From a virus, in UHGV virus genome UHGV-0203104: DNA of 38,800 nt; one strand, given 5' to 3'. Shown here piece after piece: positions 891-37,630 of this stretch. Within the stretch, counting starts at the first letter, position 1. The number at the start of each line of letters is the position of its first letter. Made by a program: the position numbers and the translations under genes. The notes beneath the pieces are model-generated. The model was not told the origin of the DNA, ran no database searches, and worked only from the letters and a program-made list of their open reading frames with translations.

Positions 891-1253
891 GGGGCTGATT
901 CTGGATTCGACGGGATTTGCGAAACCCAAGGTGCATGCCGAGGGGCGGTTGGCCTCGTAAAAAGCCGCAAAAAATAGTCGCAAACGACGAAAACTACGCT
1001 TTAGCAGCTTAATAACCTGCTTAGAGCCCTCTCTCCCTAGCCTCCGCTCTTAGGACGGGGATCAAGAGAGGTCAAACCCAAAAGAGATCGCGTGGAAGCC
1101 CTGCCTGGGGTTGAAGCGTTAAAACTTAATCAGGCTAGTTTGTTAGTGGCGTGTCCGTCCGCAGCTGGCAAGCGAATGTAAAGACTGACTAAGCATGTAG
1201 TACCGAGGATGTAGGAATTTCGGACGCGGGTTCAACTCCCGCCAGCTCCACCA
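891..1253 (+). ncRNA. ssrA: tmRNA (SsrA), 363 nt ending in CCA
   Basis: Starts GGGGCTGATTCTGGATTCGACGGG, contains the tag-reading-frame region and the tRNA-like 3' end GGTTCAACTCCCGCCAGCTCCACCA; matches E. coli ssrA as I recall it. Confidence 0.95.
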
Positions 1254-1254: not shown

Positions 1255-1263
1255 ATAAATCAA

Positions 1264-1296
1264 GGGGTTACGTGAAAGCGTAGCCCCTTTTTCTTT
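1264..1296 (+). terminator. Rho-independent terminator just downstream of the reconstituted ssrA 3' end (phage-derived)
   Basis: GGGGTTACG-tgaaag-CGTAGCCCC hairpin (one G-U pair) followed by TTTTTCTTT. Confidence 0.5.
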
Positions 1297-1311
1297 GGTA
1301 GTGGCGGCAAA

Positions 1312-1350
1312 ATGGCGACAGACTTTTGCGTCCATCTTGCCTGTCGCCAT
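1312..1350. promoter_or_regulatory. Inverted repeat ATGGCGACAG-N19-CTGTCGCCAT upstream of the 1377 gene (possible operator or integrase arm site)
   Basis: 10-bp perfect inverted repeat arms at 1312-1321 and 1341-1350, directly upstream of the RBS (AAGAGG) and ATG at 1377. Confidence 0.3.
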
Positions 1351-1376
1351 CTTGAAATCATGCAAAGAGGTTTCAC

Positions 1377-1859
1377 ATGGAAGAACTTCACTTTGTTTAC
1401 ATCAATGCAAATGGTCGTATCGGTGTTCACTCAATACAGAGCATCAGTTATAGCGAAAATCATATACAGGGCATTTGTAAGAACACCGATCGAATAAAAA
1501 CCTTCCGAAAAGACCGCATTCTTAAACAGTACGATTCACCAGAACAAGCCATTCAGGAATGCGCGTCATTCCTCCCCGAAAACTACTCACATCTCACTAA
1601 GCAGTCTGGTCCGAAAAAAAATACATTCGATGTGTGCTTCACCGGATTTAAGAAAGCAGATAAAGAAAGATTGGTTGATAAGGCGAATGAACAAGGATTA
1701 ACGGTAAGAACCTCTGTAACCCAAAGCCTTCAGATGCTCTGTTGCGGTTACAATGCAGGCCCATCAAAAGTATCGGCAGCCAGGATGAAAGGCACAATCA
1801 TCATAGATGAGCCTGGCTTTATACATTTTCTTGAAACGGGTGAGATCCCAGATGAATAA
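1377..1859 (+). CDS. Small cargo protein with WYL-like N-terminal region and C-terminal BRCT-like domain
   Basis: 160 aa with good RBS. N-terminal YINANGR...TFRKDRI resembles the WYL-domain signature; the C-terminal stretch FDVCFTGF...GLTVRTSV...AG.SK...IIIDE..F..FL aligns by eye to the LigA-type BRCT domain. Sits between attL and ogr, outside the conserved P2 gene set. Confidence 0.55.
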   Translation: MEELHFVYINANGRIGVHSIQSISYSENHIQGICKNTDRIKTFRKDRILKQYDSPEQAIQECASFLPENYSHLTKQSGPKKNTFDVCFTGFKKADKERLVDKANEQGLTVRTSVTQSLQMLCCGYNAGPSKVSAARMKGTIIIDEPGFIHFLETGEIPDE

Positions 1860-1885
1860 AAACCTGCCGTAGCAGGTTCTCTTTC

Positions 1886-2101
1886 TCAAAAATTCATATG
1901 CCCCTGACCACCTGGCAGTGGATGTGGAGGGGCTGTAGCAATCAATGCAGGTGTCACAATAAACCGGACCACTGTTTCATGGGTAACAAAAGTGCTCCCG
2001 CAGTTAATATTTTGGCACTGGCAGTAACGCTCTTTGGTGCTTTCTGTTACTTGAAAACTGCTCCTTGTGTGCGCCGCATGACCACACTTCGGACAATTCA
2101 T
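1886..2101 (-). CDS. ogr: Ogr/Delta-type zinc-finger late-gene activator
   Basis: MNCPKCGHAAHTRSS...ERYCQCQNINCGSTF matches the P2 Ogr C4 zinc-finger pattern; start trimmed to the internal Met of ORF 1886..2152; adjacent to D as in P2. Confidence 0.8.
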   Translation of the reverse strand: MNCPKCGHAAHTRSSFQVTESTKERYCQCQNINCGSTFVTHETVVRFIVTPALIATAPPHPLPGGQGHMNF

Positions 2102-2173
2102 CATATCCAGATCCCTACCTTTTGCTATCAGAATCATTGTAATGATACACAAAATATCAATATTGAGAACACT

Positions 2174-25751: not shown

Positions 25752-28088
25752 TTACAAATATGTATTGCTATGTAGAGATGTGTTTATTCCATCTTCTATC
25801 TCAATTTTTGACGAAGCATACTCATCATTCGCACTATCATCAATATCAAACTCATCTTGTAGATGAAGTGACTCATTTAACGGTCTATAAAACTCACCCA
25901 TCATCATTTTGTAATGGGCAGTATGCTCACTACACTCAAATATCTTCTGAAAAACAATTAAATATTTTTGCACAGACTCCGTATCTAAATTCATATAAAG
26001 ATCATCACCTGCAAAATGAGAACCATCATTAATCCATGACACTAAAGATTTAAATATGATTTTTTCATCACCATAAAAATGACATTCAAGCTTCCTAATA
26101 TCCATCCCACCTAATATCTTAAAGTAATTCTCCAAAATCCTTCGCATTGTATTTTGTATAGTATTATTATTAATATCTGTTCTTCTCAATTCGCACCAGA
26201 GCAAATCATAAGACGTTTTTATTGGGTTTGATTCGCACTTTTCAAGATATGAGACCTTCCCTTTTTTCCTTACAATCCAAAAAGTCTCCTCTTTCATTGC
26301 TTGATTACCGGATCTTTTAGTATTAAAAGTCAACTCTTTATGAAAATAAATATTATGTGTAAGGAATATAATTTGCTTAATATTTCCTTCATCCTTACGA
26401 ACATCCTCCATTAAATCTTTAATCAACGAACTTACAATAAACAGAATATCACTATCTAAACTTGAAATTGGATCATCAAATACTACAACACGATCATCTA
26501 AAACACCTGATGCATTATCACTCCCTCTAACAAGGCTATAAAAATACAAAAAAGTGATAAATGTCTTTTCTCCCTCGCTAAGGGTTGTACGAGCATTATC
26601 TCCACTATCTCTCACTATCATATAATGCTTTTTATCTTCGGAGGGTTTTAAGTAAAAATTTTTGAAGCCATAAGAATCCAGAATCTTGTTAATTTTTGTA
26701 ATAGTTGGAAGAGTACTGGTTTTATTAGACTCAATTGCCTCAATAGCCGAAGCATTTAACATTAACTTCTTTTTGTCTTCCTCTAACCCAGATTTAAGCC
26801 CTTGTAACTTCCTATTAAATTTATCAGATTCGCTACGGTAAGAAGTTATTTCAGACTTTAACTCCACCTTTACGATATATGCCCATATCTGATTAGAAAG
26901 ATTACTAGCCTCTACCTTTCTATTACTGTGTATTTTGTTATTATTATCTATCAATAGATTTGAATCATTCAAAAAAGAAATAAAATCATCAACAACTTCA
27001 CTTAAGTCACTAAAATGAACTGATTCACTTAAAAAATTGCGTTTATTTTTTGCCAATTCAAAATTCTTGTTTAATTCAGATAATACTATCTTAGCCTTAT
27101 CCTCAAACACTTCATAGTTTATGAATGGAGATTTAATCGCCCTTATATCATCTATCGCCTGCAAGATATTATTAAGTTGATGTTCATATTGTAAAACCAA
27201 TGCATCGATTTCTCTTTTTTTTAACTCATATGTTTTATCAAAATATGATGATAGATTATCAAATATATTATCATTTACATCCTGCTGGCAGAATGGGCAC
27301 TTGGGATTAGATTTACTGAAATATGTTAAACCTTCCTTAACCCAATCACTGTTATTGAGCATTGTAATTAAGTCTGAAACACTAACGTCTTTTTTCCCTA
27401 GAATACGCTCACTCCAAATCTCCCTACTCAAAATATCATCTATCCCATTGAAGGATGGAATTGTAATTGATACATGTGATGTCAATTCAGTAGAAAAAAC
27501 AATTTTTGCTTTCTCAATTAGCTCTGCTATTGAGCAAACTTCTGATGTGTTATTTTCATACTCAGCCAACACTCTAGCTTTAAATTTTTCACTACTATTC
27601 CTTAATCCCTCAAAAGCCTTTGAGAACACATTATCATGTTTTACTTTTTGCTTCCAACATGAATCTTTAAAAGATTTTTCATGGTCTTCGATTTGTTTAA
27701 CAACGCCTAATATATTATCACCACCATCTATTAGCTTTTCCTTTGCTATAATAGATTCTATTAGCTTATTTTTTTCTTCTTCAAGAGATATTAATTTCTC
27801 TTCATCCTCCTTAAGATCGCTACCAAGGGTAAATACACCTTTAATTTTATCTTGACTAAAATTTCTTTCAACAAAATCTTTATTATATACGTAGCTTATT
27901 AAAGATATATTATTTTTCCATTTAATCGGACATGTTGGATATTGTTCAGGGTCATTAATAATTTTACTTATAGTTGTTTTACCTGCACCATTAGCTCCAT
28001 ATAAATAGTTAAATTTAGAAAGCCCATGTAAAAGCTGAGTAGGGCCATTATATGAGCCTACTTTGTCAATAACTACCTCTTCAATCAT
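25752..28088 (-). CDS. RloC/PrrC-like (AAA_13-type) ATPase with zinc hook and putative C-terminal anticodon-nuclease-like region
   Basis: 778 aa, strongly AT-rich. Walker A GANGAGKTT (res 31-39), CPFC zinc-hook-like motif (264-267), ABC-signature-like LSEGEK (503-508), Walker B VVVFDDP (534-540), LTHN (576-579), and C-terminal R-x3-E plus downstream His (RRILE 649-653, H670/H691). Sits between Q and the cos-like site. Confidence 0.6.
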   Translation of the reverse strand: MIEEVVIDKVGSYNGPTQLLHGLSKFNYLYGANGAGKTTISKIINDPEQYPTCPIKWKNNISLISYVYNKDFVERNFSQDKIKGVFTLGSDLKEDEEKLISLEEEKNKLIESIIAKEKLIDGGDNILGVVKQIEDHEKSFKDSCWKQKVKHDNVFSKAFEGLRNSSEKFKARVLAEYENNTSEVCSIAELIEKAKIVFSTELTSHVSITIPSFNGIDDILSREIWSERILGKKDVSVSDLITMLNNSDWVKEGLTYFSKSNPKCPFCQQDVNDNIFDNLSSYFDKTYELKKREIDALVLQYEHQLNNILQAIDDIRAIKSPFINYEVFEDKAKIVLSELNKNFELAKNKRNFLSESVHFSDLSEVVDDFISFLNDSNLLIDNNNKIHSNRKVEASNLSNQIWAYIVKVELKSEITSYRSESDKFNRKLQGLKSGLEEDKKKLMLNASAIEAIESNKTSTLPTITKINKILDSYGFKNFYLKPSEDKKHYMIVRDSGDNARTTLSEGEKTFITFLYFYSLVRGSDNASGVLDDRVVVFDDPISSLDSDILFIVSSLIKDLMEDVRKDEGNIKQIIFLTHNIYFHKELTFNTKRSGNQAMKEETFWIVRKKGKVSYLEKCESNPIKTSYDLLWCELRRTDINNNTIQNTMRRILENYFKILGGMDIRKLECHFYGDEKIIFKSLVSWINDGSHFAGDDLYMNLDTESVQKYLIVFQKIFECSEHTAHYKMMMGEFYRPLNESLHLQDEFDIDDSANDEYASSKIEIEDGINTSLHSNTYL

Positions 28089-34780: not shown

Positions 34781-35419
34781 TTGATTATGAGTTTAATCAA
34801 GGCGGGGAATGATAGTGGTGGGCGCGATGCGATTAATAGGCTTATTAAGGCTTACAACTTCAGCTCACGACAGCAGCTCTGCGAACATCTGGAAGTATCA
34901 AAAAGCACTATGGCTAACAGATACTTAAGGGATAGCTTTCCTGCCGAATGGGTAATCCAATGTGCCCTTGAAACAGGAGCTTCCCTTCTATGGCTGGCTA
35001 CTGGTCAAGGAGATATGTATGTGTGTGAGAACGAAGAAACAAATCTCAAAAATGAACCTCCTGTCACTGTAAGACCACTTTCTAAGATCGTTGCTCCGAG
35101 CATCAAACGTGTTGAACTAAAGAACGGCGAACTGCAGCCAAGTGATGAAATTCTTCTTGATAGCAGCCTGCTTGATGGTGACTCATCCAACGCTTTATTT
35201 GTTAAAACAGCTAATGATAGCTTTGTAGTGGATACGTCTGTTAAACAAGTCAGTAATGGCTTCTGGTTAGTCGATATGGACGGAGTTAAAAGCATCGTCA
35301 AAATTGCGCGCATACCCGGAAACAAAATAGTAGTTAACCAAGATGACACTTCATTTGAATGTTCTATAGATGATGTGGAAGTCGTAGGACGTGCAGTCAA
35401 AATAATCAAGAACCTCTAA
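34781..35419 (+). CDS. cI: Immunity repressor (CI, 186 type)
   Basis: 212 aa; N-terminal HTH (SRQQLCEHLEVSKSTMANRYLR) plus C-terminal domain; immediately upstream of int on the same strand. Confidence 0.7.
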   Translation: MIMSLIKAGNDSGGRDAINRLIKAYNFSSRQQLCEHLEVSKSTMANRYLRDSFPAEWVIQCALETGASLLWLATGQGDMYVCENEETNLKNEPPVTVRPLSKIVAPSIKRVELKNGELQPSDEILLDSSLLDGDSSNALFVKTANDSFVVDTSVKQVSNGFWLVDMDGVKSIVKIARIPGNKIVVNQDDTSFECSIDDVEVVGRAVKIIKNL

Positions 35420-35422
35420 CTT

Positions 35423-36463
35423 ATGACCATCAGAAAACAGCCAAACGGAAAATGGTTGTGTGAGTGCTATCCCAATGGACGCAATGGTAAGCGCGTGCGT
35501 AAGCAATTTGCTACTAAAGGCGAAGCCATTGCGTTTGAAAGCTTCACAATGGAAGAAGTGAACAAAAAACCATGGCTAGGGGAAAAGGAAGATCGGCGAC
35601 ATCTATCAGAATTAATTGAGCTGTGGTATTCCCTGTATGGTCAAACACTCGCAGACCCCAAGCGCCTCATGGCGAAACTTAGAATTATCTGTAATGGTCT
35701 AGGCGATCCCATCGCCTCAGAACTGACAGCTGGTGAGTTTACGAAATACCGCGAAGCACGGTTAAAAGGTGAAGTACGAAATGAAGATGGCACGCTTATG
35801 TCGCCCGTTAAGCCCCGCACGGTAAATCTTGAACAGCGCAACCTATCATCTGTTTTTGGTACACTGAAAAAGCTGGGCCACTGGTCAGCCCCCAACCCGC
35901 TTGCTGGGCTGCCAACATTTAAAATTGCTGAGGGTGAATTGGCGTTCCTGACCTCGGAAGAAATTAAACGTCTGCTGGATGCCTGTGCTGATTCTCAAAG
36001 CCCCAGTCTGCTGATGATTGCAAAAATATGCTTGGCCACCGGCGCACGCTGGAGCGAAGCCGAAAACCTGCAGAGTCATCAGGTATCAAAATACCGTATC
36101 ACTTATACCAAGACTAAAGGAAAGAAAAACCGAACAGTGCCTATTTCAAAGGATTTATATGAAGAACTGCCTAAGAATAGGGGAAAATTATTTACACCTT
36201 GTAGGAAAGCTTTTGAACGTGCGGTAAAACGAGCTGGCATCGAGCTACCAGAAGGGCAATGCACACACGTATTACGACATACATTTGCAAGTCACTTTAT
36301 GATGAATGGCGGAAACATACTGGTGCTGCGCGATATTCTGGGCCATGTCGATATAAAAATGACAATGATTTACGCCCACTTTGCTCCCGACCATCTGGAA
36401 GATGCTGTAACCAAAAATCCTCTTGCTAACCTTGGATGGAGAAGATTAGAAAGTGTTTGTTAA
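35423..36463 (+). CDS. int: Tyrosine integrase (P2/186 family)
   Basis: 346 aa; catalytic region with R...H..R and LGHVDIKMTMIYAH. Confidence 0.9.
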   Translation: MTIRKQPNGKWLCECYPNGRNGKRVRKQFATKGEAIAFESFTMEEVNKKPWLGEKEDRRHLSELIELWYSLYGQTLADPKRLMAKLRIICNGLGDPIASELTAGEFTKYREARLKGEVRNEDGTLMSPVKPRTVNLEQRNLSSVFGTLKKLGHWSAPNPLAGLPTFKIAEGELAFLTSEEIKRLLDACADSQSPSLLMIAKICLATGARWSEAENLQSHQVSKYRITYTKTKGKKNRTVPISKDLYEELPKNRGKLFTPCRKAFERAVKRAGIELPEGQCTHVLRHTFASHFMMNGGNILVLRDILGHVDIKMTMIYAHFAPDHLEDAVTKNPLANLGWRRLESVC

Positions 36464-37499
36464 TAACTATATCCAACAATACCCATGGATATCGTACTTA
36501 CTTATCATAATATATTTTATATATATATGCCTTGAATTATATCTATGCGTATCAAAAAAAGGCTTTAACATGGATGAAAGGCCATTAACAAGTCAATACT
36601 TATTTAAACAATCACTTAGGATTCCTGTATTTTCAGCGATATACTTTGGTATATTTTCCTGGCTTGGACATTCCCCTCAATTTGATAGTGAGGGCTTTAA
36701 TAATTTCATTGCAATTAGCAAGCTTCCTATCGCCTTACTTTCTTTGTCCATACCATTTGTTGCTGTCGTAGCAAACATACACCGCACAGTTCAAACAAAC
36801 CGACAAATTGAGGAAACCAAGCAAAAGAATCTATCTGATAGCTACTATAGCCATCTAAAGTTCGTTACTGATTATTTCACCAATTTACCTAACAAAACCA
36901 TTAAACGCGAACGTCATTATGGTACTAAAGAGATAAGTTATAAAATTAACTACCCAATACATCTATATAGATATATTTTCATAAATAGCTCACCAGAGAA
37001 GGGACGGCCTAAAAATACAGATAAAGAATACATACGTGAAGTGAATAATCACTGGGTTGATATACTAAAAAACCTGGAGAAGATACATTCATCTAATCGT
37101 GGCTCTCAGTGTGACGAAGTTTTAATCCGTCAAATGCAATCTCTTCATTCAATAGAAAAACACTTATCCGAACTTAATCGAATGCTTTGCCTAACTCCAA
37201 TGGAGTTAAATGAACATGGAACTTTATACTTTGATGGATATAAAATGATTACTAACTTCATGTCCAGCATTGAACTTGGCGATACAATTGAAACCTACTT
37301 CAAATTTACCATTGATATTCTTGATATTACCGATAATTTCCTTTCATTCAAGGATGATGGCTCGTCTGGGCAAATCATTATACTTGCAAGATTACTGAAA
37401 GATAATAATCCAGCTATCTTTGATGAAATTATAACAGACAAAGGGAAGGCTCAACCTTCGTTGACCTACAATGGCGACAAATTGGCGGCAGAGGATTAA
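36453..37499 (+). CDS. AT-rich cargo protein with hydrophobic N-terminal segments (hypothetical; possible exclusion/abortive-infection factor)
   Basis: 348-aa ORF (alternative start at 36570, MDERPL..., AGG-containing RBS); strongly AT-rich; apparent hydrophobic helices (IPVFSAIYFGIFSWLG, LPIALLSLSIPFVAVVANI) before a roughly 220-aa soluble domain. Lies between int and attR. Confidence 0.6.
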   Translation: MFVNNYIQQYPWISYLLIIIYFIYICLELYLCVSKKGFNMDERPLTSQYLFKQSLRIPVFSAIYFGIFSWLGHSPQFDSEGFNNFIAISKLPIALLSLSIPFVAVVANIHRTVQTNRQIEETKQKNLSDSYYSHLKFVTDYFTNLPNKTIKRERHYGTKEISYKINYPIHLYRYIFINSSPEKGRPKNTDKEYIREVNNHWVDILKNLEKIHSSNRGSQCDEVLIRQMQSLHSIEKHLSELNRMLCLTPMELNEHGTLYFDGYKMITNFMSSIELGDTIETYFKFTIDILDITDNFLSFKDDGSSGQIIILARLLKDNNPAIFDEIITDKGKAQPSLTYNGDKLAAED

Positions 37500-37584: not shown

Positions 37585-37630
37585 ATGTAGGAATTTCGGA
37601 CGCGGGTTCAACTCCCGCCAGCTCCACCAA
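37585..37630. repeat. attR: displaced 46-bp copy of the ssrA 3' end
   Basis: Identical to 1209-1254. Confidence 0.85.

Follow-up and report, generated by a model that had tools for sequence, protein, structure and literature searches.

An accessory prophage WYL-BRCT gene that is positionally tied to the repressor transcription unit

The gene located between ssrA and ogr in UHGV virus genome UHGV-0203104 encodes a 160-aa protein in which a WYL domain is joined to a BRCT domain. It is a real, widespread, accessory prophage gene whose position links it to the lysogenic (repressor) transcription unit. Our tentative reading of its function, whose chance of being correct falls somewhat short of even, is that the protein is made in the lysogen, binds single-stranded DNA (ssDNA) and 5ˊ-phosphate DNA ends, and thereby excludes superinfecting phages.

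The window, by which we mean the whole stretch of 38,800 nucleotides that was analysed, carries a prophage of ~36 kb bounded by two copies of an att core. This prophage belongs to the 186 subtype of the P2 family and is integrated in ssrA. The features that define the setting of the gene are as follows.

194-676: smpB, at the left end of the window, before ssrA
891-1253, plus strand: host ssrA (tmRNA), whose 3ˊ end is the attachment site (ARAGORN, tag ANDENYALAA)
1209-1254, no strand: ogr-side att core of the prophage, a 46-bp sequence that recurs at 37585-37630
1364-1370, plus strand: ribosome-binding site AAAGAGG, read from the sequence
1377-1859, plus strand: WYL-BRCT gene, 160 aa, with a GC content of 41.6% versus 49.6% for the whole window
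1861-1878, plus strand: terminator-like hairpin between the convergent WYL-BRCT gene and ogr
1886-2104, minus strand: ogr, the late-gene activator and first core P2 gene (Pfam Ogr_Delta, 9e-21)
34781-35419, plus strand: 186-type CI repressor (Pfam Phage_CI_repr and Phage_CI_C)
35423-36463, plus strand: integrase
37585-37630, no strand: int-side att core of the prophage, the same 46 bp as at 1209-1254

The open reading frame (ORF) starts with ATG and is flanked by ssrA and ogr, which confirms the 160-aa gene that the earlier note had placed there. The genes for gpD, gpU and the tape measure come after ogr, and the minus strand of the prophage includes gpA, a Dam methylase gene and cII. The interval between the integrase gene and the att core contains a 348-aa ORF (36453-37499, plus strand) that has no Pfam match and matches the PADLOC '2TM effector' model weakly (E 2e-4). 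In phage Cartapus the corresponding slot holds another ORF, of 401 aa, and Yersinia phage MLG42 has no ORF there. These differing contents indicate that the interval between int and attP is a variable cargo site. A two-gene system composed of the WYL-BRCT gene and the int-side cargo ORF was considered and rejected, because Cartapus with its different cargo and MLG42 with none both retain the WYL-BRCT gene. Elsewhere in the prophage, a 778-aa AAA_13 ATPase gene (25752-28088, minus strand) adjoins the gpA replication region. Its product is a full-length match to PDC-S06, one of the candidate defence families of PADLOC (E 1.5e-266), and this is likely a second cargo or defence gene of the prophage.

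Searches at E ≤ 1e-3 yielded 122 homologues of the window protein, and a profile of its N-terminal domain retrieved 791 cluster representatives (50% identity) from among 1.84 billion searched. The architecture, which the earlier note had proposed to seek in other prophages, is therefore found widely. The same note had called the domain combination unusual, and this description does not hold: WYL plus BRCT was already listed, without a function, among the WYL architectures of a 2014 domain catalogue (PMC4012209). This catalogue was all that our literature search turned up, with no experimental study of the WYL-BRCT family and no described function that would make it a conserved gene of known role. 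Within E. coli, the arrangement of ssrA, the gene and ogr occurs in 170 of 5426 complete genomes (about 3%), and the identical prophage junction is present without the gene in 15 genomes, as expected of a gene outside the P2 core. This pattern of presence and absence, together with the low GC content, was counted in favour of accessory status. In a gene-less E. coli junction (L143 3655-3775), only ~118 bp separate ssrA and ogr. Besides a hairpin, this interval contains three direct copies of the 8-mer TGGCGRCA, and it shows where the gene has been inserted.

An AlphaFold2 model built with 44 homologues has a mean pLDDT of 91.8 and is weak only in the linker (residues ~71-82). It is thus a confident two-domain structure in which a WYL barrel is flexibly linked to a BRCT domain.

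1383-1532, plus strand: WYL domain (residues 3-52), whose five-stranded barrel contains TFRKDRI
1623-1841, plus strand: BRCT domain, residues 83-155, with invariant T89, G90 and K131

The C-terminal domain has the beta-alpha-beta-beta-alpha-beta-alpha fold of BRCT domains. The window protein itself stays below the cut-off for Pfam BRCT (PF00533), at 19.5 bits against 21.3; 40 of the 44 homologues match this model, the best at 2e-6. A family profile searched against the PDB retrieves BRCT domains from LigA of Thermus and from RFC1 of yeast and human (E 5e-5 to 2e-4), and the RFC1 BRCT matches obtained with the whole protein sequence are marginal (E 0.07). Together with the model, these matches bear out the proposal of a LigA-like BRCT domain and place it in the LigA/RFC1 type. 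T89, G90 and K131 are unchanged across the 44 sequences and correspond to FTG and (S/K)K in RFC1. Such positions make up the phosphate pocket of BRCT domains. By these residues, the phosphate pocket of the LigA/RFC1 class is intact in the window protein. A Kd of ~10 nM for the isolated RFC1 BRCT with recessed 5ˊ-phosphate DNA is the value quoted from Kobayashi 2006/2010 in PMC9293004.

Homology to this domain has affected the naming of the family in public phage records. PHROG 2561 and RefSeq phage records carry the label 'DNA ligase', and phage Cartapus carries 'putative exonuclease'. Members mislabelled in one of these ways include the following.

L001 4001-4483; L002 3980-4498; L005 6001-6483: family members labelled ligase or exonuclease

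An NAD-dependent DNA ligase was rejected because the adenylation region, OB fold, Zn finger and HhH region are all missing. Specifically, LigA models align only to residues ~42-153 of the protein, through their C-terminal positions 549-664, and score 11-20 bits against cut-offs of 369-1051. Likewise, a DEDDh exonuclease was rejected because only the BRCT tail aligns (model positions 229-307 of 331), at 26 bits against a cut-off of 389. Judged from these alignments, neither label is correct, as each goes back to nothing more than the BRCT tail. Stripped of catalysis, the ligase label forms part of another explanation, in which the protein is an accessory for host benefit or phage DNA metabolism. 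As a scaffold at nicks and gaps, it would either recruit LigA or clamp-associated repair factors or compete with them. The closeness of the domain to LigA and RFC1 BRCTs and the PHROG label would fit such a role. However, only the last ~70-100 residues of LigA have a counterpart in the protein, the gene lies in a lysogenic rather than a replication operon, and natural prophages dispense with it. We therefore consider a repair scaffold improbable.

The N-terminal domain includes the motifs YINANGR (residues 8-14) and TFRKDRI (residues 42-48), which had suggested a WYL domain to the earlier reader. When residues 1-75 are modelled separately, the pLDDT is 91.7 and the fold is an Sm-like five-stranded beta-barrel. 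The top matches of this fold among solved structures are WYL domains, two of which were solved with ssDNA bound. The Pfam WYL model (PF13280) does not match the window protein even at E ≤ 10, and it matches 8 of the 44 homologues, the best at 1.5e-5. A fused relative (P0122) scores 28.5 bits against this model, for which the cut-off is 21.8, and PADLOC WYL models match relatives at E values down to 3.7e-9. A PDB profile search with the N-terminal domain gave nothing significant (PafBC at E 1.1), so the assignment, which upholds the original suggestion, is based on the fold match and on the family-model matches to homologues. In the solved CapW and DriD structures, the WYL barrel fold binds ssDNA, and by analogy to these structural relatives the barrel of the window protein may do so as well.

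The family search with the window protein detected no helix-turn-helix (HTH), and the model has no helical N-terminal region, since the barrel begins at residue 3. These results agree with the earlier view that the protein lacks such a domain. In addition, neither a WCX domain nor a catalytic domain is present in the 160 aa. Without an N-terminal HTH and a WCX domain, the protein cannot act as a transcription factor.

The following elements are found upstream of the gene and on the int-side att arm.

1262-1299, plus strand: phage-supplied ssrA terminator, a 12-bp stem followed by a T-run, ahead of the WYL-BRCT gene
1302-1320, plus strand: tandem direct TGGCGGCA / TGGCGACA with an 11-bp period (1302 and 1313), probable integrase arm-type sites
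1341-1350, minus strand: third, inverted TGGCGRCA copy (at 1342), which is the right arm of the inverted repeat
37472-37490, plus strand: tandem TGGCGACA / TGGCGGCA with an 11-bp period (37472 and 37483), in the int-side att arm

The earlier note had assigned a 10-bp inverted repeat to the promoter region of the gene. The repeat is exact, with ATGGCGACAG at 1312-1321 and CTGTCGCCAT at 1341-1350 separated by a 19-bp spacer. However, a lone repeat of this kind is not statistically remarkable, as the window contains three perfect 10-bp inverted pairs with spacers of ≤ 30 bp compared to 1.0 on average and at most 4 in shuffled sequences. Its arms are copies of TGGCGRCA, the left one falling within the ogr-side tandem pair. 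The window contains 14 instances of this 8-mer versus 3.9 expected, a count that no shuffle attained, and five of them lie around the att core. An alignment of seven sequences, which represent seven genera, shows no variation in the ogr-side pair, and the intact attP regions of Cartapus and MLG42 have both tandem pairs arranged in the same way. The third, inverted copy is confined to the E. coli lineage.

Given the known attP organisation of P2-family phages, the TGGCGRCA pairs are probably integrase arm-type sites. A role for the inverted repeat as an operator of the gene was rejected in favour of such sites, since its left arm is part of the invariant tandem pair, which has a counterpart on the int side, and its right arm is restricted to the E. 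coli lineage. Because the repeats are symmetric on both arms and also occur in E. coli prophages that lack the gene, they appear to serve the integrase rather than the WYL-BRCT protein. The inverted repeat thus stands as a sequence feature, but its promoter or operator role is not supported. These same observations bear on the possibility that the protein is an accessory factor for integration or excision at attP. Although the gene of the window lineage adjoins the att site and the att-arm repeats, it is located away from att in most lineages, and the repeats of both arms persist where the gene is missing. An att accessory function is therefore highly improbable.

Seven genera retain the terminator hairpin at 1262-1299 in the alignment, and its base changes occur in pairs. 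After integration, the host ssrA gene receives its terminator from the phage. No sigma-70-like promoter was detected on the plus strand between 1254 and 1376, and the upstream alignment across genera reveals no conserved promoter. The lack of an upstream promoter and the strong terminator after ssrA weigh against the exclusion reading, which presupposes that the gene is expressed in the lysogen. Candidate sources of its transcript are read-through from ssrA or an atypical promoter.

The genomic context of the family gives a consistent picture of where the gene resides. A same-strand repressor ORF, usually 3-90 bp away, lies upstream in 19 of the 48 species-level loci, and among the prophages that can be recognised as such, most have the gene immediately after the immunity repressor. 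Three unrelated kinds of repressor precede the gene, namely 186-type CI, CI proteins with HTH and S24-peptidase domains, and short HTH_3 proteins. The position behind the repressor is also occupied in Mannheimia phage PHL101, Vibrio phage PV94 and a Serratia prophage, as well as in Pseudomonas prophages without detected P2-family genes. A Xenorhabdus prophage has the order cI, gene and int with gaps of 34 bp and 2 bp, and in Burkholderia phages one gene intervenes between the repressor and the WYL-BRCT gene. The location at a prophage terminus, on which the earlier note had laid weight, holds for the enterobacterial ssrA lineage, in which the gene is always between att and ogr, but not elsewhere, where the conserved position is directly downstream of the repressor. 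This position points away from a control of excision and toward a function that is expressed in lysogens. In the window lineage the gene is on the cI strand, past cI, int, the cargo gene and attP; in the circular phage these elements form one same-strand series that is headed by cI and ends with the WYL-BRCT gene.

According to Rousset et al. (PMC9122126), the interval between cI and int of K139-like P2 phages is a defence hotspot. Some non-prophage copies of the WYL-BRCT gene have Mrr, AbiGi or McrB-HNH genes as neighbours. In the other 23 loci, most of which come from environmental genomes, the neighbours are heterogeneous and often housekeeping genes. No conserved partner gene is present across these 23 loci, which suggests that the WYL-BRCT protein acts alone.

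The linkage to repressor genes is equally relevant to the main rival explanation. In this alternative, the protein is a DNA-damage sensor that tunes the lysogenic switch. Its WYL domain would detect ssDNA, its BRCT domain would dock onto the repressor, RecA or some other factor, and prophage induction would be promoted or restrained as a result. Tight linkage to the repressor would be expected of such a device, its structurally closest WYL proteins (PafBC, DriD and CapW) are sensors of DNA damage or ssDNA, and BRCT domains often mediate protein contacts. However, the gene is found with three unrelated repressor families, which include self-cleaving S24 types that already sense RecA. Moreover, membrane-tethered variants hold the same slot, some copies exist outside prophages, and in the window int, the cargo gene and attP separate the gene from cI. 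We regard a damage sensor as unlikely, although it is the likeliest of the rivals.

The best 150 of the 791 representatives are mostly WYL-BRCT proteins of about 160 aa. Strongly hydrophobic segments are present in 41 of these 150, either as one to three N-terminal helices or as a C-terminal tail anchor. The latter arrangement implies that the WYL-BRCT module is placed in the cytoplasm, and tail-anchored forms include P0152, P0220, P0229 and P0253. Other relatives carry additions, which are a ~200-aa extra domain, extra BRCT domains or an NHL propeller. The ~200-aa domain has the motifs GW.F.V...L.I and WTQGH.F.F, sits before or after the WYL-BRCT module, and has no sequence match in Pfam or the PDB.

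L144 8001-8906; L146 8001-8624; L122 7536-8492: variants with one to three N-terminal helices, directly behind the repressor in P2-like prophages of other bacteria
L126 7719-8519; L130 7590-8531: further variants with N-terminal helices in the same post-repressor slot
P0127, P0168, P0182, P0242, P0267-P0271: proteins with the ~200-aa extra domain

The membrane segments also bear on a counter-defence role, in which the protein would shield phage DNA ends from host nucleases or from end-sensing immunity. The domain make-up is compatible with DNA-end binding, and some relatives occur in records of non-P2 phages. However, a location on the lysogenic strand behind a repressor suggests expression during dormancy, and an end-protecting protein is not expected to carry membrane anchors. 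Counter-defence is for these reasons distinctly improbable.

Exclusion of superinfecting phages, the reading we tentatively prefer, is favoured by the domain make-up, the linkage to the repressor, the membrane variants in the same slot, the defence-gene neighbours and the accessory status. According to this proposal, the protein would be made in the lysogen, being co-transcribed with the immunity repressor in most lineages. In the window lineage it would likely be expressed via read-through of the int operon or, once integrated, from ssrA. The target would be ssDNA combined with a 5ˊ-phosphate end, such as a foreign genome might expose at cohesive ends, nicks or gaps while it enters or replicates. 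Occupation of this structure would then hinder end-joining or replication of superinfecting phages. Membrane-anchored relatives might act at the inner membrane face or use the membrane segment as an effector.

Several observations count against exclusion. The soluble 160-aa form has no effector domain, and the protein does not match PADLOC models beyond the BRCT domain that it has in common with PDC-S48. The neighbours in the 23 mostly environmental loci are heterogeneous and often housekeeping genes, and the BRCT half is mildly acidic (pI 5.3). Furthermore, BRCT domains can bind proteins instead of DNA. A bolder version of the exclusion proposal is that the family represents an effector-less or membrane-anchored class of prophage immunity, which would read ssDNA beside a 5ˊ-phosphate end, for example at the cohesive ends of a phage genome that enters or replicates, and block circularisation or replication by a new exclusion mechanism. 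We consider this rather improbable, and give the same low likelihood to its corollary that the repressor operons of P2-like and lambdoid prophages in several proteobacterial groups encode such a mechanism.

Whichever explanation applies, this is a common family, as shown by the roughly 3% of complete E. coli genomes that have the gene and by the 791 cluster representatives, yet it has been mislabelled as DNA ligase or exonuclease. Its slot behind the immunity repressor is kept across prophages with unrelated repressors, and genes in this slot have repeatedly proved to be exclusion or defence genes. The existence of soluble and membrane-anchored versions with invariant pocket residues offers a direct experimental handle. 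In addition, a WYL domain with an end-binding BRCT in place of the HTH would demonstrate that WYL sensing can be coupled to a non-transcriptional output.

The family can be compared with several known systems. The WYL regulators of defence or DNA damage, which include BrxR, CapW, DriD and PafBC, have an N-terminal HTH and a WCX dimerisation domain, whereas the window protein has neither and carries a BRCT partner instead. Relative to these proteins, we hypothesize that it is a sensor joined to an end-binding BRCT rather than to an HTH and residing within prophage immunity operons. The BRCT domains of LigA and RFC1 are its closest sequence relatives and have the same fold and T-G...K pocket, but they form part of a ligase or of an AAA+ clamp loader, whereas the BRCT of the window protein is part of a stand-alone 160-aa protein with WYL. 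Among PADLOC defence models there is no full-length match: PDC-S48 is hit over the BRCT part only, and SspE weakly over its tail. The PDC-S48 candidate has a related C-terminal BRCT (E 1.8e-7), but the match covers the last ~70 residues of its 411-position model, and the remaining architecture differs. Finally, the rexAB genes of phage lambda are exclusion genes that are expressed in the lysogen and co-transcribed with the repressor. They and the cI-int cargo genes of K139-like phages occupy the same position behind the repressor on the lysogenic strand, and the membrane segments of many WYL-BRCT variants were counted as a further likeness to lysogen-expressed exclusion genes. In sequence and fold, the WYL-BRCT gene is unrelated to rexAB and the cI-int cargo.
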